This document shows, piece by piece, positions 1,099 through 50,786 of a stretch of 64,000 nucleotides of DNA. The stretch comes from Alphaproteobacteria bacterium (GTDB lineage: Bacteria; Pseudomonadota; Alphaproteobacteria; JBFXJJ01): NCBI GenBank assembly GCA_050175015.1, contig JBFXJJ010000006.1, positions 64,001 to 128,000 of the forward strand, in the 5' to 3' direction. Position 1 is the first letter of the stretch; every line of letters begins with the position of its first letter. The notes under the pieces are model-generated. The model was not told the DNA's origin. It saw nothing but the letters and a program-made list of their open reading frames with translations, and made no database searches. The translations under genes were made by a program, and so were the position numbers.

Positions 1099-2487
1099 AT
1101 GAGAAAAGAACAAGATGCCCTAGGAACAAGAGAACTTGAAGATGATGTTCTTTTTGGAATTCACACTTTAAGAGCTAGTGAAAATTTTGCTGTTTCCAGC
1201 TATGTTATGCCTAAAGTTTTTATCGACGCTTTTACTATGGTTAAAGAAGCTGCGGCAACGACCTCGTTATCGCTAAAAATGCTGGAAGAAAACAAGGCTT
1301 ATGCAATCATAAATGCTTGTCATAAGATTAGGAATGGCGAAGCTTTAAATTACTTGGTAACAGATGCCTTGCAAGGAGGTGCTGGAACTTCAACCAATAT
1401 GAACTTCAACGAAGTTATCGCCAATCTTGCGATAATAGAACTTGGCGGAACCGCTGGCGATTATTCTGTTATCAGCCCGCTTGATGACGTTAACCGCTTT
1501 CAGTCAACCAATGATGTCTATCCAACGGCGTTAAAAGTTGCCTCTCTTCTTTTATTGAAACAACTAGAAAACTCCTCAGCTATTTTACAAGAAGAGCTAC
1601 AAAAAAAAGAACAAGAATTTAAAAATGTTATAAAGGTTGGACGCACAGAATTTCAAGATGCGGTTCCAATGACCTTAGGTATGGAGTTTGGAGCTTTTGC
1701 CGACGCTCTATCACGGGATCGCTGGCGGATTTTTAAATGCCGTGAACGAATCAAACAGGTAAACTTAGGAGGAACAGCGATAGGAACAGGACTTGCAGCG
1801 CCTAGAGAATATATTTTCAAAGTAGTAGAAAACTTGCGCAGTATTTCTGGTCTGGCACTATCCCGTTCAGAAAATCTAATTGATGCAACGGCAAATTCGG
1901 ATAGTTTTGTAGAAGTTTCAGGAATGCTAAAAGCTTTTGCCGCTAATCTTTTTAAAATAGCAAGTGATTTAAGAGTTTTATCCAGCAGCCAGTATGCAGA
2001 AATAACTCTGCCTGCCGTACAGGCGGGATCATCAATTATGCCGTCAAAAATAAACCCTGTTATCCCTGAAATGGTTTCGCAAATTGCACTAAAAATTATG
2101 GCTAACGATAGCCTAATCGCTCAAGCGGCATCTTTGGGAAATATGCAGATTAATCAGTTTATGCCTCTTATTGCCCAAGCTCTTTTAGAATCTCTTGAAC
2201 TGCTTAACAATGCATCTTTAATTTTTGCAGAAAAATGCATTAAAGGAATTACGGCAAATGGTGAAAAATGCCTAACTAATTTTGAAAAAAGCTTTACTCT
2301 GGCTACCGTTTTGGTTCCCATTTTAGGATACAACAAGGTTTCTGAAATTGTAAAAGCTGCAAAATTAAATCAATGCACCATTAAAGAACAACTGCTTCAG
2401 GAAAAGCTTCTTTCTGCAACTGAAATTGATGAATTAATGTCTGCTCAAAATATGTATAAATTAGGATTTGAAAAAAAATATGAATAA
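1099..2487 (+). CDS. aspA: Aspartate ammonia-lyase (fumarase/aspartase superfamily)
   Basis: QGGAGTSTNMN, QSTNDVYPTA, GRTEFQDAVP, and the GSSIMPSKINP catalytic loop. Confidence 0.9.
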   Translation: MRKEQDALGTRELEDDVLFGIHTLRASENFAVSSYVMPKVFIDAFTMVKEAAATTSLSLKMLEENKAYAIINACHKIRNGEALNYLVTDALQGGAGTSTNMNFNEVIANLAIIELGGTAGDYSVISPLDDVNRFQSTNDVYPTALKVASLLLLKQLENSSAILQEELQKKEQEFKNVIKVGRTEFQDAVPMTLGMEFGAFADALSRDRWRIFKCRERIKQVNLGGTAIGTGLAAPREYIFKVVENLRSISGLALSRSENLIDATANSDSFVEVSGMLKAFAANLFKIASDLRVLSSSQYAEITLPAVQAGSSIMPSKINPVIPEMVSQIALKIMANDSLIAQAASLGNMQINQFMPLIAQALLESLELLNNASLIFAEKCIKGITANGEKCLTNFEKSFTLATVLVPILGYNKVSEIVKAAKLNQCTIKEQLLQEKLLSATEIDELMSAQNMYKLGFEKKYE

Positions 2488-3709
2488 GCCAAAAGATAAC
2501 GGTGGAGCAGAAGGCGCCGCCAGAGGAATGAGAACGATTATAACCCTTGTTGGACGCAGAAACGCAGGAAAATCATCTTTGATAAATGCTTTGTGTAATC
2601 AAGAGGTCGCCATTGTTTCTGATATAGCAGGAACAACCACAGACCCCGTAGCCAAAGCTTATGAGTTGCTTCCCCTTGGTCCTGTAACTTTTTATGACAC
2701 AGCAGGAATTGACGACGAAGGAGAAATCGGAAAATTAAGAGTATCTGCAACCAAAAAAGTGTTATGTAGAACCGATATTGCCTTAATGGTAATTAATGAA
2801 CGCGGCATTAAAAAGGAAGAAGAAGATTTAGTAAACGAATTAAAAAAACTTGATATTCCATTCATAATTGTTTTCAACAAATGTGATTTAACATCACCAT
2901 CACAATCTGACATTAAATTCTGCCAAAGCAATGCCATAAACTTTGCTGAAGTATCGGCTAAAAATTATGCTAATATTGACGACCTAAAAGCCAAAATTAT
3001 TGCAACCCTTCCTAAGGATATGATGGCAGAACCCAGCCTTGCCGCCGATCTTATTAAAGAAGGCGATTTTGTTTTATGTATCACTCCGATTGATTTGGCT
3101 GCGCCTAAAGGCAGGCTTATTCTGCCGCAAGTCCAACTGATTAGGGAAATATTAGATTCTGATGCCATTGCCGTTGTTTCTAAAGAAAGAGAAATTGAAG
3201 CGGCGTTATCCAATTTCGGACGAAAACCAAATCTTGTGGTAACAGATTCTCAAGTCGTTTTAAAAGTTGCAGGCGATGTCCCTGATGATATACCACTTAC
3301 AACTTTTTCTATTCTATTTGCTAGATTTAAAGGCGATTTAAAGCTTTTAGTCGATGGAGCGAGAGCGATTGATAAGCTGCAAAATGGGGATAAAGTATTA
3401 ATTGGTGAAGCTTGTTCACATCATAATCAAGCTGATGATATTGGGCGGGTAAAAATCCCAAGATGGCTGACGCAATATACAGGGAAAGATCTTCATTTTG
3501 ACATTTTCTCGGGACACGACTTCCCTGAAAACCTAGAGGATTACAAGTTGGTTATTCATTGCGGAGCCTGTATGATAAATCGCAAAGAAATGGTAAGAAG
3601 GATTGTGGAATGCAACCGCAGAGGAGTTCCAATAACTAATTATGGCGTTTGCATTTCAAAGGTTCAAGGTGTTTTAGAACGTGTGATTAAACCTTTTATT
3701 GGAATTTAA
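2480..3709 (+). CDS. hydF: [FeFe]-hydrogenase maturation GTPase HydF
   Basis: GRRNAGKS, GTTTD, DTAG and NKCD GTPase motifs; APKGRLILPQVQ; CSHH...HCGAC Fe-S motif. Likely ATG at 2480 overlapping the end of aspA. Confidence 0.95.
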   Translation: MNKPKDNGGAEGAARGMRTIITLVGRRNAGKSSLINALCNQEVAIVSDIAGTTTDPVAKAYELLPLGPVTFYDTAGIDDEGEIGKLRVSATKKVLCRTDIALMVINERGIKKEEEDLVNELKKLDIPFIIVFNKCDLTSPSQSDIKFCQSNAINFAEVSAKNYANIDDLKAKIIATLPKDMMAEPSLAADLIKEGDFVLCITPIDLAAPKGRLILPQVQLIREILDSDAIAVVSKEREIEAALSNFGRKPNLVVTDSQVVLKVAGDVPDDIPLTTFSILFARFKGDLKLLVDGARAIDKLQNGDKVLIGEACSHHNQADDIGRVKIPRWLTQYTGKDLHFDIFSGHDFPENLEDYKLVIHCGACMINRKEMVRRIVECNRRGVPITNYGVCISKVQGVLERVIKPFIGI

Positions 3710-6142: not shown

Positions 6143-6433
6143 ATGAATAACGAAAAACAACAATTATTAAATATGCGTCATAGTGCCGAGCATATTATGG
6201 CTCAAGCTATCCTTAAACTTTACCCTGAAGCAAAAATGGCGATGGGACCTGCTACGGAAGACGGCTTTTATGGCGATTTTGAATTTCCTGAAAATATTTC
6301 AATATCACCTGACGATTTTGCTCTTATTGAAAAAGAGATGCAGCGTTTAATTAATCAAAATCTTATTTTTGAACAAAAAACGGTCACGAAAGATGAGTAT
6401 CAAAGTTTTGGCTGCCTTTTTTTAAACCGTTGA
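6143..6433 (+). pseudogene. thrS: Truncated threonyl-tRNA synthetase (N-terminal editing-domain fragment)
   Basis: RHSAEHIMAQA...GPATEDGFYGDF...IEKEM. Similarity stops at about aa 85 (KTVTKDE), and no continuation is visible before the next gene. Confidence 0.8.
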
Positions 6434-28762: not shown

Positions 28763-29551
28763 TTAGTCTTTATTAAAGAAAACTTCTCCTGAGTTTATTC
28801 TTTGTCTCTGTCCATATTCATTAATAAATAAAATTGCTCCATCTTGATCTATATCTTCAAATTTTCCCTTTAGGGTTTCTTTTGGCAGTCTAATTACAAT
28901 ATCTTGACCTAAACCATAGGCATTTTCTAGCCAATCTTGTCTTATACCACTAAATCCCTCAATTTTCCAAAAATTAAACATCTCCAAAAATTTTTCTAAA
29001 AAAAGTTCTAGCAGCTTCTCATTTTCAATACTTATACCACAATCAGATAAAGATGTTGCTTTAATAGCACCGTCAACATCATCTGGGTGATTTTTGTTAT
29101 TAACACCCATTCCGATAATAACAAAATCATTTAAGCTCGTACCTGTTGTTTCTATTAATATGCCTGACACTTTGCAATAATCAGATGTTATTACGTCATT
29201 TGGCCATTTACATAAGAACTTTGATTTACCTGTTAACTCGTTAAGGACTTTTGTTAAAGCTAAAGATACAACAAAACTTAATTGCCCCATAACAAAAGCT
29301 TCAGAACTGAATTTTAATATCATTGAAAGATATAAATTTCCTTGGGGACTATGCCATAAACGTCCTCTTCGCCCTTTGCCGCTTTTTTGAATTTTTGAGA
29401 CGACAATCGTTCCCTCTGGTGCGCCATTTGCTGCTAAATCCCTAGCATAATCATTAGTGCTACCAACTTCATCTAATCTAATTATATTCCAAAAAACGCT
29501 GTTTTTATCCAAAGGATGCCACCTAAAACAAAACAGTTCCTTAATAAACAA
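28763..29551 (-). CDS. birA: Biotin-protein ligase (no HTH; start uncertain)
   Basis: STND, QKSGKGRRGRLW, KWPND, KVSGIL. Confidence 0.93.
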   Translation of the reverse strand: MFIKELFCFRWHPLDKNSVFWNIIRLDEVGSTNDYARDLAANGAPEGTIVVSKIQKSGKGRRGRLWHSPQGNLYLSMILKFSSEAFVMGQLSFVVSLALTKVLNELTGKSKFLCKWPNDVITSDYCKVSGILIETTGTSLNDFVIIGMGVNNKNHPDDVDGAIKATSLSDCGISIENEKLLELFLEKFLEMFNFWKIEGFSGIRQDWLENAYGLGQDIVIRLPKETLKGKFEDIDQDGAILFINEYGQRQRINSGEVFFNKD

Positions 29552-29554
29552 CCA

Positions 29555-30964
29555 CTAATTGGGCAATAAAAATGGATACGCACAAACAAGCAGCATTACA
29601 AAAAAACTACAAATCATAACAATACTATTATATAACCCTATATTATCAAATTTTTCATCTGTTTTTTTAAAATAAACAACATCTATAATTCTGATAAAGC
29701 TTAGCAGCATTAAAACAAGGGAAATAACTACACATACAATTAGCCAGTATATTTTGGTTTTCAATAATATCATTAGCAGATGAAAAATACCGTAAAAGCC
29801 AGCTAAAGCTGGAACGCCCGATAAAGACATCATAAAACAAACAAGGACAATAGCCCCAAACGGATGAGAAGAAGCAAAACCTTTAACATCTGCAATATTT
29901 TCAATTAGATTTCCATTTTTTCTTAAGGATAAAACAATTGAGAAAATACCAACGATGCTAATACTGTAAGATGTTACAAGAAATACTACAGCAGACAAAT
30001 CATTTTCTTTGATGCCGATGAATGATGCCCATATATAACCACTATAAACCATAGAACAATATGCCATCATTCTTTTTATGTTTGTTTGAGAAATCATAGC
30101 TATGGAACCTAGAAGCATTGACGCCGCAGCAAAAAACATTAATACAGGCATAAGCTGCGGCCATAAAGGCAAAAAGACATCTTTGATTAAACGAAGCAAC
30201 ACGACAAAATAGGCGATCTTCGGTGTTGACAATAAAAATGATGTTACTGGTGTTGGAGCGCCTTCCGCAATATTAATACTGCCAAAGTTGAACATCGCCA
30301 TATCACATTTAAATAATAAACTGGCAATAACCATAAAAAAACCAGCCATAAGCAAGGCATTGTTTCCGTTCTTTGAAACATACTCCGATACGATTTTAAA
30401 CCCCATACCACCTGTTGTTCCATAAATAAAAGAAACACCGTACAAATAAAATATTGCAACCACTAAACCTATGGCTAAAAATCTTGTTCCCATAATTGTT
30501 GAACGAGTTGCCCTTCTTTTAAAGGCAACCATCAAATACATCGGAAGCATAGAAAGCTCTAACCCCAAATAAAGGGTTATAAATCCTTTTGCAGAGATTG
30601 CTATCATCATTCCAGCTATCGAGAAAATTAAGAAAAAAGGATATTCATAACGCTTAAATTTTTTCAAAATAAGCCATTCATTGGCTAAGAAAATATTAGC
30701 CAAACCACAAAATAGAATTAATATCTTAAAATAAAGTGTTAGCTTATCATTAACTAAAAATGCCTCTAAATTATAATTAGACATATTGAAAAGAGAGAAT
30801 GTTAGAAATAAAGCACCCAATATAATGACTATTGATGATTTTAGAGCCGTATGATGAGAAATTCCGTGCCTAAATGCCCCCAAAACCAACATCACTACAG
30901 GAGCCATCAACAACAAAATTTCAGTTGTTACAAAACCAAATATATTATGAATTAAACTTATCAT
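29555..30964 (-). CDS. nuoN: Complex I subunit N homolog (divergent)
   Basis: LYLGLEL, EGAPTPVT, NIKRMMAY, SLSGVP.LAGF; canonical position before birA. Confidence 0.88.
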   Translation of the reverse strand: MISLIHNIFGFVTTEILLLMAPVVMLVLGAFRHGISHHTALKSSIVIILGALFLTFSLFNMSNYNLEAFLVNDKLTLYFKILILFCGLANIFLANEWLILKKFKRYEYPFFLIFSIAGMMIAISAKGFITLYLGLELSMLPMYLMVAFKRRATRSTIMGTRFLAIGLVVAIFYLYGVSFIYGTTGGMGFKIVSEYVSKNGNNALLMAGFFMVIASLLFKCDMAMFNFGSINIAEGAPTPVTSFLLSTPKIAYFVVLLRLIKDVFLPLWPQLMPVLMFFAAASMLLGSIAMISQTNIKRMMAYCSMVYSGYIWASFIGIKENDLSAVVFLVTSYSISIVGIFSIVLSLRKNGNLIENIADVKGFASSHPFGAIVLVCFMMSLSGVPALAGFYGIFHLLMILLKTKIYWLIVCVVISLVLMLLSFIRIIDVVYFKKTDEKFDNIGLYNSIVMICSFFVMLLVCAYPFLLPN

Positions 30965-30969
30965 AAGCT

Positions 30970-32343
30970 TTACCCTAACTCCGCAATAACTTGATTGGCA
31001 AAACTAAAAATTACAGCAAAAATTTTAGTTTGAAAAACAGCAAGAATAATGGTTGCTGCAATTAATGATAAAAAAGTTAGATAGTCTTTTTTATATCCTA
31101 TTTTGCTATTAGCAATATTGCGATTTTTTGCAAGCACGCTGATTGACGAGAAGAAAATAGCAACAACCGCAATTATCATAAAAACAATATCTTTCTTCAT
31201 TAGCTCTGAAATCATTATAATAAAACCAGAGAATACCGCAAAAGGAGGAAAAACAATAATTACAGGCAAAATTAAAAATTTTAAAACATCTAATATGCTT
31301 TTTTCATTATCCAAGATTTCCTCAAATTCAAATTGCAGCATCATCAAGGGAAAACAAAAAGCAATAAAGATAAAAATTACCGATGCCATCAAAAGTGCAT
31401 CAAATGAAAACAATCCGATTGTAACTATTCCCAAATAAATTCCAAAAAGATAGCTTAAAAATCTAAACGTATTCCGCTCTAAAACAACACATATAGAGCA
31501 ATATACCGTAGTAATAGAAGCCATAATTACTATAATATTGCCATATTCAACACAAACTTTAGGCAACAGCGGCATCACAAAGTGCAAAACCACATAAACA
31601 AAGCTCATAATTTGACAAGTAAGGAAAAATGATGCCACAGGAGCCTCTAGTTTCCTTAAAAAACCAGCCAGCCAAAAATGATTAGGAACAAAGCCTAGTC
31701 TCAAAAATAGCGAAGCTGCTATTAAAATAAACGTCAGCCTATTTATGTTACAATCTCCTGTTTCCTTATTAAAAAGGTAGCAGACAACCGCCGTTAAAAA
31801 TAAAAAAGAAGATAACAATAAATTAAGAACAGGCCACTTTTCTTTGGTGTTGTCCTCTTCTTCCATATTTATTCGACTTATAAAAATGAAAGGAATTGGA
31901 AGTATGAAGAAAAACACATTAAAAAGCATAATATTCAAAGATGAAAACATACCGTTACCAATGGCTGTGGCCAAAAGTATACTAACAATATATTCTTTGT
32001 GTTTTTCTTTATTCTTATCTCTTAAGGAAAAAACACAAAGCATACTCAAAAATGAGTTAATCATAATAAATATTAAAGATACAGCTTCAACGCCAACAGC
32101 GTGTTCTATTTTAAATTCATTATTAAAAATATCTCTTTTTTCTAATAATTGAAACCCAAGCTTGCTAAAGTCATAACGAAGCACCAAAGATGCGGCAAGA
32201 ATAAAAGTTGATATTACAGTTAATAATGCAACATTGCTGGTATTTTTAGAAATCGTCAAATTTTCGTTTCTAATAAAAAAGATAAAAAATATGCCCATTA
32301 GCGGCAAAAATGTAATTAAAGATAAAATCGGCCAATTTGTCAT
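30970..32343 (-). CDS. nuoM: Complex I subunit M homolog (highly divergent)
   Basis: WPILSLITFLPL N-terminus typical of alpha NuoM, P.H.WL, antiporter-like hydrophobicity, synteny. Confidence 0.8.
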   Translation of the reverse strand: MTNWPILSLITFLPLMGIFFIFFIRNENLTISKNTSNVALLTVISTFILAASLVLRYDFSKLGFQLLEKRDIFNNEFKIEHAVGVEAVSLIFIMINSFLSMLCVFSLRDKNKEKHKEYIVSILLATAIGNGMFSSLNIMLFNVFFFILPIPFIFISRINMEEEDNTKEKWPVLNLLLSSFLFLTAVVCYLFNKETGDCNINRLTFILIAASLFLRLGFVPNHFWLAGFLRKLEAPVASFFLTCQIMSFVYVVLHFVMPLLPKVCVEYGNIIVIMASITTVYCSICVVLERNTFRFLSYLFGIYLGIVTIGLFSFDALLMASVIFIFIAFCFPLMMLQFEFEEILDNEKSILDVLKFLILPVIIVFPPFAVFSGFIIMISELMKKDIVFMIIAVVAIFFSSISVLAKNRNIANSKIGYKKDYLTFLSLIAATIILAVFQTKIFAVIFSFANQVIAELG

Positions 32344-34070
32344 TTATAAAACACTACAAAACTTAAAGTTAAAATCAACGTTACGGCAAAAAACAGAGCA
32401 TTAAATGTAAAATTATTCTTTTGATAAAGTTTGGCAAATTTCTTTAAAAGCTCAAACATTTTATCAATAATTTTTTCGATTGTCCTATTCAAAATTCTGT
32501 TATTAACTTTGTTTTTTAAGGCTATACCAAAACGAAACATAGGGAAAGCAACCACTTTAAAAAAGAACATATCCGCTTTTTCAGCAAAAGAAAACCTAAC
32601 TTCTTTAGAGCAGATATTCCGTCTGTAAATTTTTTCAGCCCAAAAAATGCCGACAGCAACTGCGATTAAACGATAACCAGAAAACATATTAAACTTGATA
32701 TAGTAAGAAACGATACTCAAAAATATAGCAGTAACAGACATTGATGATAAAATAAACAATGAACGTTCTTGAACTCTTGCAAACACAGCGTCTTCAGCTT
32801 TGGTTGTCCCCAAGCAGGAACAAATGATAATTCTTGCAACCGCAAAAGCAAAAACACCACTTGCCAAAAGCTCCCAGACATTAATCATATAATCAATTTT
32901 TACTATTTTTATGCTTAGATAAGGAACAAGCATAAAAGCTGCCCCAACCAACATCATAAAATATGTTGCTGGCAAAAGCTTTTTTGCTCCCCCCATTTTA
33001 TCCAGCCTGTACTCGCTAGAAAATGCCTCTATCAAAGAACCACAAGCTAGGAAATAAAGCAGGCTTGCCGTGATTTGAAATACTGCAAAGAAAACAAAAC
33101 CGTCCAAACCATTTAAAACAAAATAAGTAATCATTAAACCCATCTGTGATGAAATCAAAAAAGCGAGCGATGATGCGATATCTTTTTCAAAAACAGCAAA
33201 TATTGGCGATAAAAATACAGTTGCTACCCCAAGAATCATAGCTATTTCAACAATTTTAGGATTAAACAACAAAACATCAGAAAGCCTTGTCATAACAATC
33301 ATAAAACATAATGGAACGGTAATTGTTGCCGTGACAATAAAACTTGGGAAATGAGCTCTTGATGTTTTTATAAAGACCAAATTTCCAATAATAAAACCGC
33401 CTTTTACCCATACAAACAGCCAAAGCAAGCTCGAAACAATGTTAATGAGTTCCTTTTTATTCTCAAAATTATTATCTTGAACAAAACCATCATTGCCAAA
33501 AGTTGAAAGCCAAATGGCAAAAGCTACAAATATCAAGAAACTGCCAATGGTCTCAAACACCATAAAGCTCAAAAGGCTATCTTTGGATTCATCTTGCCTG
33601 CGACCGTTGACAATTAATATCCCTGCAAACAAAAGAGCCAAATCCATACCTAAAATTAATTGAAAAAAACCTGTGGCTAAAATAGCTATTTTTAAGAAAA
33701 ATATCTGTGAACTGAGAATAGAAAAAATTGCATTTTTGCTTGTTCCAACGATAGAGAAAGAATAACAAAAAACAAAAACACAAAAATAGATTATTGCAAG
33801 AATTAAAAGATACGTTACTGAGGCTTTATCAACAATGAAGCCGTAAGTTAAATAAAAATTTTCCTTAAAAAGCAGCTGAAAAACCGCGGTCTGTAAATTT
33901 CCATCTGCTCCAATAAAAACTAAAAAGCTAAAAAAAACATCAACAAAAGCTAAAAGAGGAAAAACTAACTCTGATGCCTTTTTTTTGTTAAACTTTTCCA
34001 AAACTATACTAGCGAAAACGGCTAAAAAATTAACCGATAAAACACTGTAAAAAGAAAAAAGTGTCACCAT
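32340..34070 (-). CDS. nuoL: Complex I subunit L homolog (highly divergent)
   Basis: DIA..LAF..SSQMG, GSLI, KMGG remnants; synteny between nuoK and nuoM. Confidence 0.8.
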   Translation of the reverse strand: MVTLFSFYSVLSVNFLAVFASIVLEKFNKKKASELVFPLLAFVDVFFSFLVFIGADGNLQTAVFQLLFKENFYLTYGFIVDKASVTYLLILAIIYFCVFVFCYSFSIVGTSKNAIFSILSSQIFFLKIAILATGFFQLILGMDLALLFAGILIVNGRRQDESKDSLLSFMVFETIGSFLIFVAFAIWLSTFGNDGFVQDNNFENKKELINIVSSLLWLFVWVKGGFIIGNLVFIKTSRAHFPSFIVTATITVPLCFMIVMTRLSDVLLFNPKIVEIAMILGVATVFLSPIFAVFEKDIASSLAFLISSQMGLMITYFVLNGLDGFVFFAVFQITASLLYFLACGSLIEAFSSEYRLDKMGGAKKLLPATYFMMLVGAAFMLVPYLSIKIVKIDYMINVWELLASGVFAFAVARIIICSCLGTTKAEDAVFARVQERSLFILSSMSVTAIFLSIVSYYIKFNMFSGYRLIAVAVGIFWAEKIYRRNICSKEVRFSFAEKADMFFFKVVAFPMFRFGIALKNKVNNRILNRTIEKIIDKMFELLKKFAKLYQKNNFTFNALFFAVTLILTLSFVVFYK

Positions 34071-34361
34071 TTAAACAGCCTCCTCTCCGTCGGTTCTGTG
34101 CTTACGGAAACAAACAAGCATAATAGCAAGAGAAACCGCTATTTTAGCCGCACCAACAGCAAGAATAAGCATATAAAAAACTTCTCCCATAATATCGCCG
34201 TGATACTTTGCAAAAGCCATAAAATTAATCGCTATACCTGCCTGCATAACAAAGAAAGCGATTATAATCCGAGCAATTGAACCTTTACTAGTAACGGCTC
34301 CATAAAAACCGATTACAAAGACCACGAAAGCAAGCAGAAGAAAATGATAAATTGTAATCAT
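34071..34361 (-). CDS. nuoK: Complex I subunit K homolog
   Basis: 3 TMs, INFMAF, GD..G..F, AVGAA.IAVSLAI. Confidence 0.85.
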   Translation of the reverse strand: MITIYHFLLLAFVVFVIGFYGAVTSKGSIARIIIAFFVMQAGIAINFMAFAKYHGDIMGEVFYMLILAVGAAKIAVSLAIMLVCFRKHRTDGEEAV

Positions 34362-34951
34362 ATTTTGGCTCCCTCTTTTTCTGGTGCAAGTTTAACTAGC
34401 TCTAAATCTTCATCTTTATGGATTTTTGATTTTTTAATTTTTTCCTGTTCTTTGCCTTCTATACCATAAACAAGCATTATAGCCCCCGAAGCTCCACAGA
34501 AAAGAATGACACCTGAAATTTGAAATAGGAAATATCTGCTGTAAAAGAGGTGACGTCCAAGTTCTTTAAATGAAAAAATATCATTATTTACTGCTATTTC
34601 TTTTACATTACTTACCCCAAAAAATGCCGCAACAACGTTAATTAGAAATACTAGAAATAAAGAGAACATAAAAAAAGCAAATAAATTTTTAATGTTTTTG
34701 GAATCATACGAATTATTTTCTTCAATCATAATGGCAAAAACAGTAACCACGCATATTGAAGATAAATCTATCAGCCCTAAAGACAACGCAACAAACTCGA
34801 AACCAAGAGCAATCAAAATTCCTGATAAAGTACAAATAAAAGGCACCAAAAACAATAAACCGCTTATTTTATTTTTGGAACTAACCGCAAGTATTGCAAA
34901 AAATATTAGCAATACTGCGAAAAAATAAAATATGGTATCACTTAAAATCAT
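34358..34951 (-). CDS. nuoJ: Complex I subunit J homolog
   Basis: FYFFA, EFVA, LG..L...Y..LFQ.SG.IL...GAI.L; synteny. Confidence 0.8.
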   Translation of the reverse strand: MILSDTIFYFFAVLLIFFAILAVSSKNKISGLLFLVPFICTLSGILIALGFEFVALSLGLIDLSSICVVTVFAIMIEENNSYDSKNIKNLFAFFMFSLFLVFLINVVAAFFGVSNVKEIAVNNDIFSFKELGRHLFYSRYFLFQISGVILFCGASGAIMLVYGIEGKEQEKIKKSKIHKDEDLELVKLAPEKEGAKI

Positions 34952-34959
34952 AATATAAA

Positions 34960-35841
34960 TTATCCATTAAAAACCACATAACCTGCGGTAAAAAAGCTCC
35001 AAAAAACGTTTATTGGAAAAATAAATTTCCACAAAAAACCCAAAAGTTGATCTTCTCTAAATCTTGGGGTCGTATATTTAATAAACATCATAAGAACTAA
35101 ACATAAGGCTATTTTAAGAACAAACCAGACAAACTGAGGAATTTTTAACAGCCAAAGAGCGCCACCTATCGGCAGCCAGCCACCTAAAAACATAACCGTA
35201 ACAAAAGCTGCAACCGCAAGCATTGAGAGAATGTCGCCCAAATCAAACAACATTAAAGATAGTCCAGAATATTCACTGCGGTACCCTCCTGTAATCTCGG
35301 TTGTACCATCAGAAAAATTGAGAGGTTTCAACATCATAAAAGCAATCATAGAGAAAACAAAACCTATGAAAGTAAGAATATGCGGAAAAACAAACCACAT
35401 ATCTCTCTGGGCATCAACAATGTCAGCAAATTTCAAAGAATGAGACGAAATAACAACAGGAATAACACTAGAAAATGCTACAAGCCTAGAGTTTATAATC
35501 TGCCTAGCTGCTCGGAGGCTTCCAATAACAGCATTTCTTGTATTACTACCTATGCCTGCCATAATGCAGCCAAAAACATCAAGGCATAAAACCACAAATA
35601 CCAAAAACAAACCGGCCTCAACATTCGCAAAAGCCGCCTTTTCACTAAAAGGAATAAGCAGAAAAACAAGCATTGCAACACAAATGTTGATTACAGGAGC
35701 AACCGCGAAAAAGACACTATCGGCATCTTTAGGTAAACTGTATTTTTTAGTATGTACTTTAAAAATTGATAAAAAATCTGAAGTCAAACCTTTTGCTAAA
35801 TTTATGAAAAACTGAGATAAAAAACACTTCATAATAACCAC
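34960..35841 (-). CDS. nuoH: Complex I subunit H homolog (N-terminally shortened)
   Basis: IGSLRAA, EITGGY.SEYSG, FLGGW, PRFREDQL..F.WK. Confidence 0.88.
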   Translation of the reverse strand: MVIMKCFLSQFFINLAKGLTSDFLSIFKVHTKKYSLPKDADSVFFAVAPVINICVAMLVFLLIPFSEKAAFANVEAGLFLVFVVLCLDVFGCIMAGIGSNTRNAVIGSLRAARQIINSRLVAFSSVIPVVISSHSLKFADIVDAQRDMWFVFPHILTFIGFVFSMIAFMMLKPLNFSDGTTEITGGYRSEYSGLSLMLFDLGDILSMLAVAAFVTVMFLGGWLPIGGALWLLKIPQFVWFVLKIALCLVLMMFIKYTTPRFREDQLLGFLWKFIFPINVFWSFFTAGYVVFNG

Positions 35842-35846
35842 AATTC

Positions 35847-36989
35847 CTATTTATCAATATTAGCAGAAGAAACGTCTAAACTCGCAACAATCAAAGGAAC
35901 ATCTGAAATAAAGCTTCCCTTAAGCAGCATATTTAAGGATCCTGCATGAGCAAGGCTTGGCGTCCTGATGCTACAACGATAAGGCTTATCTGTTCCATCA
36001 GATACAATAAAAACACCTAACTCGCCTTTAGGGCTTTCAACACAACTTAAAACCTCATCTTTATCATTAGGTTTTATATCATAACTACTTAAAATACTGC
36101 TATATTTATTATTCCTGCCTGAACTTAAAACATCAATTTCACCTTGCGGAATCTTAATAAGAGCCTGATTAATTATTGCCATTGATTGTTTTATCTCTTC
36201 AAATCTTACAAGACATCTAGCATAGCAATCTCCAGCCTCACACACTGGAATTTCAAAGTCAAAATCAGCATATACACCATAAGATGTTTTTCTTCTCAAG
36301 TCCCACACACAGCCTGAAGCTCTAAGACAAGGACCAGAAAAACCTAAAGACATCGCTTGATCAAAATCAACAAACCCGACATCTTTTGTCCTGACCTTAA
36401 AACCATAATTATTGGTTACAACCTTATCAACTTCTTCAAGAAAACAAGATAATTCATTGTTTAAAAATGATTTTATTCCAAAAACAAAATCATCAGACAA
36501 ATCAAATCTAACTCCGCCCAAACAAAAGAGACCTTCTTGAATTCTAACATCTAGCGTTTTTGTATAAATTTCAACAAGTTGCCGTTTTAACTTAACCGAT
36601 ACACTTAAGATATTGTCCATACCAACTGTGTTGCAAATATTTCCAATATTAATAATATGATTGATAATTCGAGCAATTTCAGCGTGAACAGTTCTTATAT
36701 AAGATGCCCTTTTGCTAACCTCGATATTAGCCAGATATTCACAAGCTAAAACAAATGGATATTCAGAAGAAAAAGGAACGCTATTATCAATACGGCTCAT
36801 ATAGGGAATAATATTGGCATATTTTTTACTTTCAAAGCTCTTCTCTAAGCCTTTATGATAATATCCAACATAAGTCTCGGCATCACTTATAGCCTCACCC
36901 TCAACGTGAAGACGGAACTTTATCCCGCAAGCAAGATAATTCTCAACCCCTATCTCAAATGTATCAGAAACAGCTTTATTATGAACCAT
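35847..36989 (-). CDS. nuoD: Complex I subunit D homolog (divergent)
   Basis: GY.HKGLEK, GFSGP.LRASG, GDCYAR, ESPKGELG, PYRC.IR; no NiFe CxxC pairs. Confidence 0.9.
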   Translation of the reverse strand: MVHNKAVSDTFEIGVENYLACGIKFRLHVEGEAISDAETYVGYYHKGLEKSFESKKYANIIPYMSRIDNSVPFSSEYPFVLACEYLANIEVSKRASYIRTVHAEIARIINHIINIGNICNTVGMDNILSVSVKLKRQLVEIYTKTLDVRIQEGLFCLGGVRFDLSDDFVFGIKSFLNNELSCFLEEVDKVVTNNYGFKVRTKDVGFVDFDQAMSLGFSGPCLRASGCVWDLRRKTSYGVYADFDFEIPVCEAGDCYARCLVRFEEIKQSMAIINQALIKIPQGEIDVLSSGRNNKYSSILSSYDIKPNDKDEVLSCVESPKGELGVFIVSDGTDKPYRCSIRTPSLAHAGSLNMLLKGSFISDVPLIVASLDVSSANIDK

Positions 36990-37010: not shown

Positions 37011-37604
37011 TCAGCCCTTTATCTGGCAGCAAGCCCCAAAAGCACTACAAGTTGTTTGCTCGTTTTCTTTGGGAAAAAGCCTAATAATTTTGCGATTATC
37101 ATCAAATTTTTTCTCGAACTCACCATTAAGAGGAAAATCTTTTCTTAAAGGATACCCCTTAAACCCAAAATCATTATAAAGACGCCTTAAATCTGGGTGT
37201 TCGGCAAAACATATCCCAAACATATCCCAAACCTCTTGCTCATACCAAACAGCAGAGTCATAGACTTGAGATACTGATTTTACCAGTTTCAAGCCATCGT
37301 TTGTTATTCGAACAATAATTCTCTGATTAAGCTCGTGGCTTAAAATATGATATAAAACCTCAAAACGCTCTTCTTTTTCAGGGTAATCTATCCCCGAAAT
37401 ATTAGTTAAACTAGAAAATCTACAGTTAGCATCATCTCTTAGAAAAGAAAGAACTCTAGGAAGCAGCCTAGGCTGCGCATATATATTAAGAATGCCGTTT
37501 TTTATCACAACATTTTTAATGCTGTCTTGAAGACTCGCTTCAATATAAGCCGCAAGATTTTCAAGATTATTCTCTATTTGTAACCGACGATGTTTCTTTT
37601 TCAT
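37011..37604 (-). CDS. nuoC: Complex I subunit C
   Basis: WYEQEVWDMFG, HPDLRR, GYPLRKDFPL. Confidence 0.93.
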   Translation of the reverse strand: MKKKHRRLQIENNLENLAAYIEASLQDSIKNVVIKNGILNIYAQPRLLPRVLSFLRDDANCRFSSLTNISGIDYPEKEERFEVLYHILSHELNQRIIVRITNDGLKLVKSVSQVYDSAVWYEQEVWDMFGICFAEHPDLRRLYNDFGFKGYPLRKDFPLNGEFEKKFDDNRKIIRLFPKENEQTTCSAFGACCQIKG

Positions 37605-37613
37605 AGCTTTTTG

Positions 37614-38075
37614 CTAGTCCTTGTTAGTAATAAATTTAAAAACATCAAAAATGAGACTTGGATCTGGAGGACAACCAACCACCTGAATATCAACAGGCAC
37701 AATCTTATCAACGCCTCTAACTAAGGAATAAGAAGAATAAAGCCCACCAGAACAGGCGCAAGATCCAACCGCCACAACCCATTTAGGAAACGCCATTTCG
37801 TCATAAACATGCCTTATAATTGGAGCAACCTTATTAGTTATTTCTCCAGAAAAGACCATAACATCACAATGTTTAGGACTATTTTTAATCGAGACTTTTA
37901 AGCTTTTATCAACACTGCTGTACGGCATAAACATATCCAGCCCACAACAGCCTTGATCCAATAGATATACCGCAAGAGAATTAGTTATAATTTTCTTATT
38001 TTCTCTTAAAACCACAAATTTTGAATTAGATGGAACTTTACCAGCATCATTAAGACTACAGCTTATCTTTTCCAT
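37614..38075 (-). CDS. nuoB: Complex I subunit B homolog (cluster N2)
   Basis: CC, PKWVVAVGSCA, GVDKIVPVD, GCPP. Confidence 0.92.
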   Translation of the reverse strand: MEKISCSLNDAGKVPSNSKFVVLRENKKIITNSLAVYLLDQGCCGLDMFMPYSSVDKSLKVSIKNSPKHCDVMVFSGEITNKVAPIIRHVYDEMAFPKWVVAVGSCACSGGLYSSYSLVRGVDKIVPVDIQVVGCPPDPSLIFDVFKFITNKD

Positions 38076-38419
38076 TCGAAGCCTCCCTTACACAAAACGT
38101 ATACCAACGTAAAGAGTTGAATAAGAAAGTAGGCTAAAATCACAAAGAATAGTTTCCAGCCAATATTAAACAATGAAACCGCCCAAAGCATAAAAAACAC
38201 CATAACCGGAGAAAATACTACAAAGACTATCGCAACAGGAAAATTTTGAAACGAGAAATAGCCATTAAAAAACGCTTTTTCTTTTCTTATTTCTGAGATT
38301 TTTTGATTATTATCGGTTATTTTTTTAGCGATAAAAAAGGAAACAAGCGGCATAATGATAATAAAAATCAATACAAAAAAAAGAAAAAATCCTAGATAGC
38401 CGTCAGGAATAGTAACCAT
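38063..38419 (-). CDS. nuoA: Complex I subunit A homolog (divergent)
   Basis: 118 aa, 3 TMs, VAIVFVVF..., C-terminal KGGFEW; overlaps nuoB. Confidence 0.8.
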   Translation of the reverse strand: MVTIPDGYLGFFLFFVLIFIIIMPLVSFFIAKKITDNNQKISEIRKEKAFFNGYFSFQNFPVAIVFVVFSPVMVFFMLWAVSLFNIGWKLFFVILAYFLIQLFTLVYVLCKGGFEWKR

Positions 38420-38467: not shown

Positions 38468-38809
38468 TTATTTTCTCAAACCAGAAAAACTTTCTTGAGA
38501 AATTGGCAATTTTTTGACAATTCTAATTGGCACTTCATATTCAACTGCAATATCATCATTATCAAATTCAACCACCAAGACAGTATCAGCATAAAACAAT
38601 GACTGTCTAGCTTCTGGGTGAATGTAATCAAGCATAATAGTAAGTCCGTTATTGCGGTACAGCAAAGCGTGTTCGCCGCCGTCATAAACGATTTTAGGCT
38701 CTTCTGGCAGCCCTTTTCTTGCTTTAATTGAGATTAACAAATCACCAGAAGAATTTTGCAATATATCATAGAGTTCTTCTTGTTCTGGTTTTACTTGTTT
38801 CTCTAACAT
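38468..38809 (-). CDS. Hypothetical soluble protein immediately upstream of nuoA
   Basis: 113 aa, AGGAG RBS, same strand, 48-nt gap to nuoA. Confidence 0.75.
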   Translation of the reverse strand: MLEKQVKPEQEELYDILQNSSGDLLISIKARKGLPEEPKIVYDGGEHALLYRNNGLTIMLDYIHPEARQSLFYADTVLVVEFDNDDIAVEYEVPIRIVKKLPISQESFSGLRK

Positions 38810-50357: not shown

Positions 50358-50786
50358 ATGCCTGTACTTTGGAGAAATGACTTAAGTGTTGGCTGCAAAG
50401 ATATTGATAACGACCATAAAAATTGGCTTAATGTAGTCAATGTTGTATCAATGGGAGTTGATTCTGGAGATGTTAAGTTAGTAAAAAAAGCTATGGATGA
50501 TGCTGTTGAATATTCTAGGCAGCATTTTTATCGTGAAGAAAAACTAATGAAAAACATCAGTTACCCGTATTATGAAGAACACTTTGAAATTCATTCAACT
50601 TTTATTGAAAAAATAAATGATTTTCAAACAGATATGAATATGAATATGGATTATCACCCTGAAGAAGCTATGAAAATAGGTAAAAAGTTCGCAACTTTTA
50701 CTAGGAACTGGCTTTTGAGTCACATAAAAAATGAAGACAGCAAAATCAGTCCTTTCATTAATAACAAATGTGATAATCTCGATTAA
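50358..50786 (+). CDS. Bacteriohemerythrin
   Basis: IDNDH, HFYREE, HFEIH, WLLSHIKNED di-iron ligands. Confidence 0.92.
   Translation: MPVLWRNDLSVGCKDIDNDHKNWLNVVNVVSMGVDSGDVKLVKKAMDDAVEYSRQHFYREEKLMKNISYPYYEEHFEIHSTFIEKINDFQTDMNMNMDYHPEEAMKIGKKFATFTRNWLLSHIKNEDSKISPFINNKCDNLD

Follow-up and report, generated by a model that had tools for sequence, protein, structure and literature searches.

Complex I is among the most conserved enzymes. Here we describe a reduced nuo operon, carried on the reverse strand of a 64,000-nucleotide stretch of an alphaproteobacterial genome (contig JBFXJJ010000006.1, positions 64,001 to 128,000; the whole stretch is called the window below), from which the subunits for electron input, the quinone site and most of the residues for proton pumping have been lost. 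Because these have gone and the operon has nevertheless been conserved, the complex that it encodes probably acts outside respiration. That its product is neither a quinone reductase nor linked to NADH we regard as very likely, and we put at about 0.5 the probability that it is a silent, structurally maintained remnant of complex I with a non-respiratory role.

Results

The operon encodes ten of the fourteen complex I subunits

The ten co-directional genes follow the order nuoA-B-C-D-H-J-K-L-M-N from 38419 down to 29555, so that 10 of the 14 core subunits of the Nuo14 type (A, B, C, D, H, J, K, L, M and N) are encoded. In the window the features are as follows.

38063..38419, reverse strand: nuoA-like, 118 amino acids (aa); Pfam PF00507, 28 bits
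37614..38075, reverse strand: nuoB-like, 153 aa; Pfam match; cysteines of cluster N2 (C43, C44, C106, C135) kept
37011..37604, reverse strand: nuoC-like, 197 aa; Pfam PF00329, E-value 1e-38
35847..36989, reverse strand: nuoD-like, 380 aa, without the quinone-site residues; alignments to chains of the Protein Data Bank (PDB) and to homologues
35842..35846, reverse strand: nuoD/nuoH junction, 5 base pairs (bp); site of nuoE, nuoF, nuoG and the nuoH 5' end in relatives
34960..35841, reverse strand: nuoH-like, 293 aa from a GTG (290 aa from the ATG at 35832); Pfam and PDB alignments
34952..34959, reverse strand: nuoH/nuoJ junction, 8 bp; position of nuoI in relatives
34358..34951, reverse strand: nuoJ-like, 197 aa; Pfam PF00499
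34071..34361, reverse strand: nuoK-like, 96 aa; Pfam match
32340..34070, reverse strand: nuoL-like, 576 aa; Pfam match; the most divergent subunit at 20% identity
30970..32343, reverse strand: nuoM-like, 457 aa; no Pfam match; alignments to relatives
29555..30964, reverse strand: nuoN-like, 469 aa; Pfam match
28763..29551, reverse strand: birA, the synteny anchor, 3 bp downstream of nuoN

Adjacent genes of the operon are -13 to +21 bp apart, J/K and L/M overlapping by 4 bp. In a relative of the same class (genome G005) the genes are arranged D-x-x-E-F-G-H-I-J-K-L-M, whereas here nuoH follows nuoD after only 5 bp and nuoJ follows nuoH after 8 bp; nuoE, nuoF and nuoG, together with the 5' end of nuoH, and nuoI have therefore been removed by clean deletions. 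The missing genes were not found elsewhere in the source genome (G000; 49 contigs, 99.4% complete). NuoE, NuoF and NuoG are absent from it, the only two PF01512 matches being RnfC and a HydB-like protein, and across the whole genome the NuoG model matches only with its first 200 positions, inside the N terminus of HydA (131 bits against a cut-off of 470). NuoI is likewise absent from the genome, the best TIGR01971 score being 29 bits against a cut-off of 113. There is one PF00346 match in the genome, and its PF00361 matches are the NuoL and NuoN of the window only. Nine of the ten nuo products pass the Pfam thresholds, the exception being NuoM, which has no match; of the NCBIfam cut-offs, only those of the NuoB subfamily model PRK06411 and the NuoC subfamily model are passed, and no equivalog cut-off is reached. 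A promoter and terminator scan returned background levels (54 sites where 46.8 were expected, and 11 where 8.0 were).

The quinone site of NuoD has been replaced

An earlier note on this DNA had proposed, from a reading of the letters, that the quinone-binding site is ablated in NuoD and NuoH. In a phmmer comparison with the PDB, NuoD can be aligned over its whole length to the mitochondrial and Paracoccus 49-kDa subunits (E-values 1e-67 to 2e-66). In these alignments GVENYLACG (36924-36950) lies under the canonical GPQHPAAHG, RIDN (36783-36794) under RLDY, NTVGM (36618-36632) under (M/L)DVGA and HKGLEK under HRGTEK, and at the C terminus SANID(K) lies under FGEID(R), with ANIDK at 35850-35864; the motifs GFSGP, GDCYAR and ESPKGE are retained, and 12 residues are deleted near residue 289. 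The positions of Thermus Nqo4 His34, His38, Tyr87 and Asp139 are thus occupied by N, C, N and T. Of the canonical residues we take His38 and Tyr87 to be the ligands of the quinone headgroup, Asp139 to pair with the His, and the Arg to adjoin cluster N2. The same placement was obtained in a MAFFT alignment with nine other homologues. Both the four motif changes and the persistence of the three structural motifs, as the note had described them, accordingly stand, and the changes at the His, Tyr and Asp columns were also followed in a census of homologues. For the census we took the 120 nearest homologues listed by a word-indexed search, 119 of which have residues at all three of the His, Tyr and Asp columns; all three residues are present in 113 of the 119 and are all missing only in the window protein and two close relatives. 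Judged by this census, the loss of the site is not chance variation.

In a search of 5.8 billion proteins, those two relatives of NuoD are 56% identical to it by BLASTP (56 and 58% by MAFFT), all others being at most 38% identical; the same search returned one relative of NuoH (60% identity, 284 aa) and one of NuoM (48% identity, 452 aa). All four are full-length proteins with the same replacements, and the NuoH relative is likewise without TM1 (the first transmembrane helix). When 1.84 billion representatives were searched by profile, only that one cluster came up, at 749 bits, the next match scoring 325 bits. Scanning with the clade alignment detected one unrelated locus only (27% identity) among metagenome contigs, and 40 canonical NuoD loci of at most 37% identity, with no close relative, among genome contigs; a sample of 400 genomes of the class held no NuoD above 40% identity. 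The note had also raised the possibility that conserved replacement residues might mark a new ligand site. The clade lends this idea weak support: E-N-Y in the former quinone loop is fixed across the three members, but the exact ligand positions vary among them (C/L/S, N/N/D and T/A/A). Cysteine pairs of the [NiFe] type (CxxC) are missing from NuoD at both its N-terminal GVENYLACG and its C-terminal SSANIDK, and it has no PF00374 match. An AlphaFold2 model of NuoD (mean predicted confidence, pLDDT, 61; residues 1-55 and 290-380 below 50) is too weak for modelling of the cavity.

NuoH lacks its first transmembrane helix

Three kinds of alignment bear out the claim that NuoH is without transmembrane helix 1 (TM1) and the ERK/GPN loop. 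Its Pfam match begins at position 40 of the 298 of the profile; in PDB alignments, query residues 17-27 start against chain residues 42-57; and when it is set against NuoH from 12 relatives of the same class, residues 1-17 fall on the end of TM1, and in place of the ERK...GPN loop it has a gap of 19 residues. The note had allowed that an upstream start might restore the helix. TM1 cannot be restored, because an in-frame stop closes the nuoH frame directly upstream of 35850, from which point alone the frame is open; the nuoD stop is the TAG at 35847-35849. An AGGA overlaps the nuoD stop, 11 nucleotides before the nuoH ATG at 35832. Further along NuoH, AETNRAPFDLPEAEAE has become AFMMLKPLNFSDGTTE and SYE has become NSR, and the acidic cluster has been replaced relative to the 12 relatives (E119R, E168F, R171L, D175N and E180T).

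Residues of the proton path are missing from most membrane subunits

We examined the remaining subunits against the operons of the same 12 relatives (10 for NuoA). The acidic E-channel residues of NuoH (TM5-6 loop), NuoA and NuoK and the Glu and Lys residues of NuoL, NuoM and NuoN listed here are those that we take to form the proton path. In NuoA the invariant Asp and Glu of the FDxE motif have become S and V (D70S, E72V), in NuoK both membrane glutamates are replaced (E37F, E73K), and NuoJ keeps one of five invariant charged residues. NuoL has Asp for the TM5 Glu and keeps the TM7 Lys; its TM11 His/His/Lys and TM12 Lys/Asp are replaced, and 4 of its 29 invariant charged residues are kept. 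NuoM has lost its TM5 Glu to Phe (E146F), its TM7 Lys to Arg (K215R), its TM12 Glu to Phe (E374F) and its TM8 Lys together with a 2-residue deletion; a low-confidence AlphaFold2 model of NuoM (mean pLDDT 59), built from an alignment that included canonical NuoM rows, has Paracoccus chain M as its best PDB match. NuoN keeps the TM5 Glu, TM7 Lys and TM8 Lys, has Ile for the TM12 Lys, and retains 13 of 20 invariant charged residues.

NuoC and NuoB are the best-preserved subunits, NuoC being 39% identical to the relatives. In NuoB, C43, C44, C106 and C135 match the CC...GxCA...GCPP motifs of cluster N2, and the N-terminal 40 residues are unaligned. Besides these cysteines, the subunits have retained their overall folds. 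At its C terminus NuoC carries a Cys-rich tail, CSAFGACCQIKG (37011-37050, reverse strand), that has no counterpart in the alignment of the relatives' NuoC.

Divergence is spread over all ten proteins

The earlier note had held that loss is concentrated on catalytic rather than structural positions. To gauge this, we counted retention at columns invariant in the 12 relatives. The membrane subunits (A, H, J, K, L, M and N) retain 39 of 122 charged, 117 of 358 hydrophobic, 64 of 145 Gly/Pro and 41 of 141 polar residues; the corresponding figures for the peripheral subunits (B, C and D) are 57/103, 38/100, 39/65 and 21/54, and NuoD by itself retains 35/60 charged, 19/36 Gly/Pro and 11/48 hydrophobic residues. 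Because every class of invariant column has suffered, the divergence is general and runs through whole proteins. The subunits of G000 are 20-42% identical to those of the relatives, which are 58-77% identical to one another (for NuoD, 35% versus 71%), and identity declines along a gradient from 42-35% in B, C and D to 23-20% in M and L. The acceleration is specific to nuo, since the adjoining BirA shows none (36% identity to relatives versus 39% among relatives). The claim is therefore only partly borne out: as read from the alignments, the known functional residues are nearly all lost, with NuoL and NuoM the most degraded, but all ten subunits are strongly accelerated and the change is not targeted to catalytic positions.

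Reduced operons recur in other members of the class

At least four other genomes of the class, found among GTDB genomes and belonging to other families, carry reduced operons.

G023: A-B-C-D-H-J-K-L; missing E, F, G and I (and M, N)
G202 (congener of G023; contig ends within L): A-B-C-D-H-J-K-L; missing E, F, G and I
G002: B-C-D-H-J...M; E, F, G and I not found on that contig
G018: A-B-C-D-G'(truncated)-H-I-J-K-L-M-N-birA; missing E and F

In NuoD of all four, both loop His and the Tyr are lost, with replacements that differ each time; over all reduced lineages, the window's included, the pocket loop reads ENY..C, QQTAGGG, LQPLSIE or PEPATGM. The four N2 cysteines are kept in NuoB of G023, G202 and G018. 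NuoL of G023 and G202 keeps the TM5 Glu, TM7 Lys and TM11 His/Lys. No reduced lineage has kept the acidic chain by which the pocket is coupled to the pumps.

The genome itself points to life without quinone. Searches with family models detected no UbiA-family prenyltransferase in G000 (one was found in each of 14 control genomes), nor any haem-copper oxidase (COX1), cytochrome bd or cytochrome b there. Among the compared genomes (completeness 63-100%), UbiA-family matches above the cut-off were absent from G000, G002, G023, G202, G031 and G038; G018 has one 74-bit match, and the canonical G005 and G016 have two strong matches each. G018 and G023 have an [FeFe] hydrogenase, whereas G005 and G016 have none. 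Genomes G040 and G239, which are flagged as unpublished, enter the tallies only. G000 encodes an ATP synthase c subunit, an rnfBCDGEA operon (L004:7986-13028, contig G000:C5) and a HydABC-like operon (L005:420-4414, contig G000:C4) that comprises a NuoE-like protein, a NuoF-like protein and an [FeFe] hydrogenase with a NuoG-like N terminus. The [FeFe]-hydrogenase maturation GTPase HydF (573 bits against a cut-off of 326) is encoded at 2468-3709 on the forward strand, on the same contig as the nuo remnant; because HydF lies within the window itself, the anaerobic trait is independent of binning. Together with the replaced ligands and the absence of NuoE, NuoF, NuoG and NuoI, the lack of UbiA-family prenyltransferase, cytochrome b and oxidases lends support to the proposal that the complex cannot reduce quinone.

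In G023, the HydABC genes are followed by a six-gene operon for an Ech-type group 4 [NiFe] hydrogenase and by pyruvate:ferredoxin oxidoreductase (L088:2003-14366, contig G023:C70). A bacteriohemerythrin gene lies in the window at 50358-50786 on the forward strand, in a genome without terminal oxidases.

The operon appears to be maintained by selection

A slow decay, in which function went with the quinone pool and the reading frames are merely not yet broken, might be read from the extreme acceleration of all ten subunits, from the loss of nearly every known functional residue and from NCBIfam scores that fall below the equivalog cut-offs for nine of the ten products. Moreover, one relative of the class, G026, holds a NuoD-like frame with an internal TAG (G026:C129:417-1523) that may represent a true pseudogene stage; neither the UbiA family nor an [FeFe] hydrogenase was found in G026. 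We nevertheless consider decay of the operon unlikely. Its 2,946 codons contain no in-frame stop, although 4.2% of single-base changes in nuo codons would create one and the off-frames hold 523 stops (0.089 per codon). The deletions left junctions of 5 and 8 bp, the 4-bp overlaps are typical of coupled translation, and the proteins of all four known relatives are full length.

Conservation also still follows ancestral constraint. The window's own clade was compared by proteins alone: at columns that keep the ancestral invariant residue, identity within the clade is 61/73 for NuoD, 41/47 for NuoH and 35/45 for NuoM, above the roughly 0.56, 0.77 and 0.69 estimated for uniform neutral drift at the overall identity observed, and at changed columns it is 23/75, 31/56 and 60/117, respectively. 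The ratio of non-synonymous to synonymous substitution rates (dN/dS, NG86 method) was obtained for G023 against G202, a sister lineage whose operon has the same architecture (62-80% amino-acid identity). It is 0.11 for A, 0.08 for B, 0.04 for H, 0.06 for J and 0.09 for L, so that no ratio exceeds 0.11; for C, D and K, dS is saturated and dN is 0.20-0.24. Because two to three metagenomic relatives share the changes, reduced operons recur and dN/dS is about 0.04-0.11, we read these as maintained genes and not pseudogenes, and hold it to be likely that the operon is kept by selection rather than decaying.

The locus is that of a class-typical nuo operon

In 19 of 40 relatives of the class, nuoD and birA share a strand and a contig, with birA 9.0-13.0 kilobases (kb) downstream; the figure for G000 is 7.1 kb, the shortfall fitting the missing genes. 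The best solved matches of NuoN and NuoM are Paracoccus denitrificans chains, and the nearest named homologues of NuoM are alphaproteobacterial. By this synteny with birA, the locus is, as far as gene order and sequence similarity tell, a vertically inherited class-typical nuo operon (of the alphaproteobacterial/mitochondrial type) that has been reduced to ten genes.

The reduced forms come together in a NuoD tree (support 91/79), outside the canonical clade of the class and the outgroups and on very long branches. Such a placement could instead mean that an old, separate complex I-like family (of the Ehr or Mbx kind) replaced the Nuo operon by transfer, and in the wider superfamily 37 of 138 full-length NuoD-like representatives (from a library at 50% identity, ranked by clade profile) likewise lack the His, Tyr and Asp; these we have taken to be old separate branches. 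The stems measure 1.3-2.7 changes per site, however, and their composition is deviant, which argues for long-branch behaviour, and we read the placement as a long-branch artefact that is uninformative on origin. The arrangement A-B-C-D...H...J-K-L-M-N-birA stands at the class-typical locus in both G000 and G018. The best scores of NuoN, NuoM and NuoC are to sequences from Paracoccus or other Alphaproteobacteria, and in G018 a nuoI and a truncated nuoG are still in position, as expected of an intermediate. Replacement by transfer thus strikes us as very improbable. One of the representatives (P0168, among P0168-P0316) shares its site motif with NuoD of G002.

Discussion

We envisage that the lineage may have turned into a quinone-free anaerobe in which the class-typical nuo operon was reduced to ten genes. 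The product would no longer accept electrons from NADH or relay them through an Fe-S chain, and would be capable neither of quinone reduction nor of redox-coupled proton pumping; we infer that the reduced complex is nevertheless made and kept by selection, and propose that it may be a catalytically silent, pseudoenzyme-like membrane complex with a non-respiratory role. The exchange of buried charges for hydrophobic residues (Glu to Phe in NuoH, NuoK and NuoM) should stabilize the idle fold, and cluster N2 may have been kept as a structural cofactor. Given that the operon is maintained, we think a silent scaffold slightly more probable than a new catalytic or transport activity, because the buried acids have become Phe or Met and are fixed, and because the pocket has no common replacement across lineages.

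Several points weigh against a silent scaffold. The four N2 cysteines persist, under strong purifying selection, in the reduced lineages examined, so a cluster at work in redox chemistry fits no less well than a purely structural one. Some ion transport remains conceivable because NuoN here and NuoL in G023 and G202 keep several channel residues. The dN/dS figures come from the sister lineage and not from the window's own clade, and quinone synthesis and NuoI were judged absent by family models applied to the 49-contig assembly. The DNA is contained in a single sequencing run, from a landfill metagenome that may be its source, and no RNA run is listed.

It is possible, though we doubt it, that the complex is instead a neofunctionalized enzyme or transporter. 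Cluster N2 would then be its sole redox-active cofactor, reduced by ferredoxin or by a HydABC-type module, and a non-quinone acceptor would bind in the remodelled pocket; in a variant of this proposal, ions would move without redox chemistry. G000, G023, G202 and G018 all keep the four N2 cysteines, dN/dS in G023 and G202 (0.04-0.11) is like that of working enzymes, and a paper on the MBS structure reports, by its title, substrate reduction at an Fe-S cluster. Producers and consumers of ferredoxin are encoded (Rnf and HydABC in G000, pyruvate:ferredoxin oxidoreductase in G023), and a HydABC-type module carries domains like NuoE, NuoF and NuoG; yet a NuoI-type wire and a donor-docking subunit are encoded neither in nor beside the operon. 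In the pocket, a new E-N-Y motif has been fixed in the three clade members, whereas across the reduced lineages its residues differ every time, which argues against one shared new ligand. As for ion movement, NuoN keeps three of four channel residues and NuoL of G023 and G202 the TM5 Glu, TM7 Lys and TM11 His/Lys, but the window's own NuoL and NuoM lack nearly all of theirs and the acidic chain from pocket to pumps is lost in all reduced lineages. We would therefore advance only tentatively the idea that several quinone-free, anaerobic alphaproteobacterial lineages share an undescribed class of complex I-derived machine, in which only N2 and a NuoABCD-HJKL core are kept, under strong purifying selection, and that may serve a new, direct coupling of ferredoxin or hydrogenase to a non-quinone acceptor or a redox-gated movement of ions.

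The operon differs from each of the systems with which it can be compared. The canonical complex I of Alphaproteobacteria and mitochondria (Paracoccus denitrificans, PDB 8qby) shares with it the locus, the gene order with birA, ten homologous subunits and the N2 cysteines, but has 14 subunits, including NuoE, NuoF, NuoG and NuoI, and has the quinone His/His/Tyr/Asp, TM1 and loop of NuoH, the E-channel and the antiporter Glu and Lys residues. Like the operon described here, the 11-subunit complex I-like enzymes (cyanobacterial and plastid NDH-1, archaeal Fpo and the Desulfitobacterium enzyme) are without NuoE, NuoF and NuoG, and they occur in anaerobic hosts or use donors other than NADH. They pump, and have retained NuoI together with a functional quinone or phenazine site; unlike them, the window lacks a NuoI-type subunit and the site residues. 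They have been described as working enzymes (PMC11238625, PMC3144371).

Group 4 [NiFe] hydrogenases and their kin (Ech, Mbh, Hyc and MBS; PDB 6cfw, 7z0s and 6u8y) resemble the operon in having a NuoD-like subunit without quinone ligands and in belonging to ferredoxin-based anaerobes, and group 4 hydrogenase and MBS chains are distant PDB matches of the window NuoD (E-values 5e-44 to 2e-29). The window, by contrast, has neither the [NiFe] cysteine pairs nor a NuoI/HycF-type ferredoxin subunit, its synteny and best matches point to a derived Nuo and away from this old branch, and in G023 a separate Ech-type operon stands beside the reduced Nuo. Group 4 hydrogenases and MBS, for their part, have retained a [NiFe] site or a ferredoxin subunit. 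The 'Ehr' complexes of Marreiros et al. 2013 are reportedly further group 4 kin with a NuoD-like subunit that lacks quinone ligands.

Mrp antiporters (PDB 7qru and 6z16), which are weak structural matches of the NuoM model, are likewise an assembly of antiporter-like subunits without quinone. NuoL and NuoM of the window have lost most of the antiporter relay, and the operon still encodes a NuoBCD arm that bears an Fe-S site (the MrpE, MrpF and MrpG families were not searched for). Mrp antiporters, by contrast, keep the Lys/Glu relay in their MrpA/D-like subunits and comprise MrpB, MrpC, MrpE, MrpF and MrpG besides. Hydrogenosomes keep only the NuoE and NuoF homologues and have lost the membrane arm, so that it is the opposite half that is retained here. 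Mitochondrion-related organelles are alike in that quinone-linked respiration has been lost in a system derived from an alphaproteobacterium and in their [FeFe] hydrogenase; reductive evolution of complex I in the anaerobic organelles is the subject of a review (PMC6856725).

In the literature searched (supplements lay outside the search) we found no report of a mitochondrial-type complex I conserved without NuoI and the quinone ligands. To our knowledge, every described derivative of complex I keeps a quinone-type pocket or a [NiFe] site, plus an Fe-S wire. The operon therefore offers a natural experiment on what the remaining architecture of complex I serves after the loss of input module, wire, pocket and much of the proton path, and may provide a free-living bacterial counterpart to the reduction that led from mitochondria to hydrogenosomes. 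There is also a practical side: reduced operons of this kind would receive the annotation 'NADH-quinone oxidoreductase' and enter metabolic reconstructions from metagenomes as a sign of respiration, which is probably wrong for these genomes.

Neighbouring genes

Downstream of birA lie genes for RNase J, proS, lolCE, lolD and dnaE. A 96-aa open reading frame (ORF) at 6143-6433 on the forward strand matches only the first 74 positions of a threonine-tRNA ligase model and may be a fragment or a stand-alone N-terminal domain. Upstream of the operon, 48 bp from nuoA, is a 113-aa ORF (38468-38809, reverse strand) that has no Pfam or NCBIfam match and offers a weak PilZN-like lead. A homologue that is 60% identical lies directly upstream of nuoA in G018 (L087:12465-12797, reverse strand), unlike the Nuo proteins, which are only about 31% identical between G000 and G018. 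The family of this ORF has 12 copies in G000 and is present in 6 of 41 genomes searched (G000, G002, G018, G023, G031 and G038), and these six are the genomes with a reduced nuo operon or none; it may be a clade marker or a partner of the complex.

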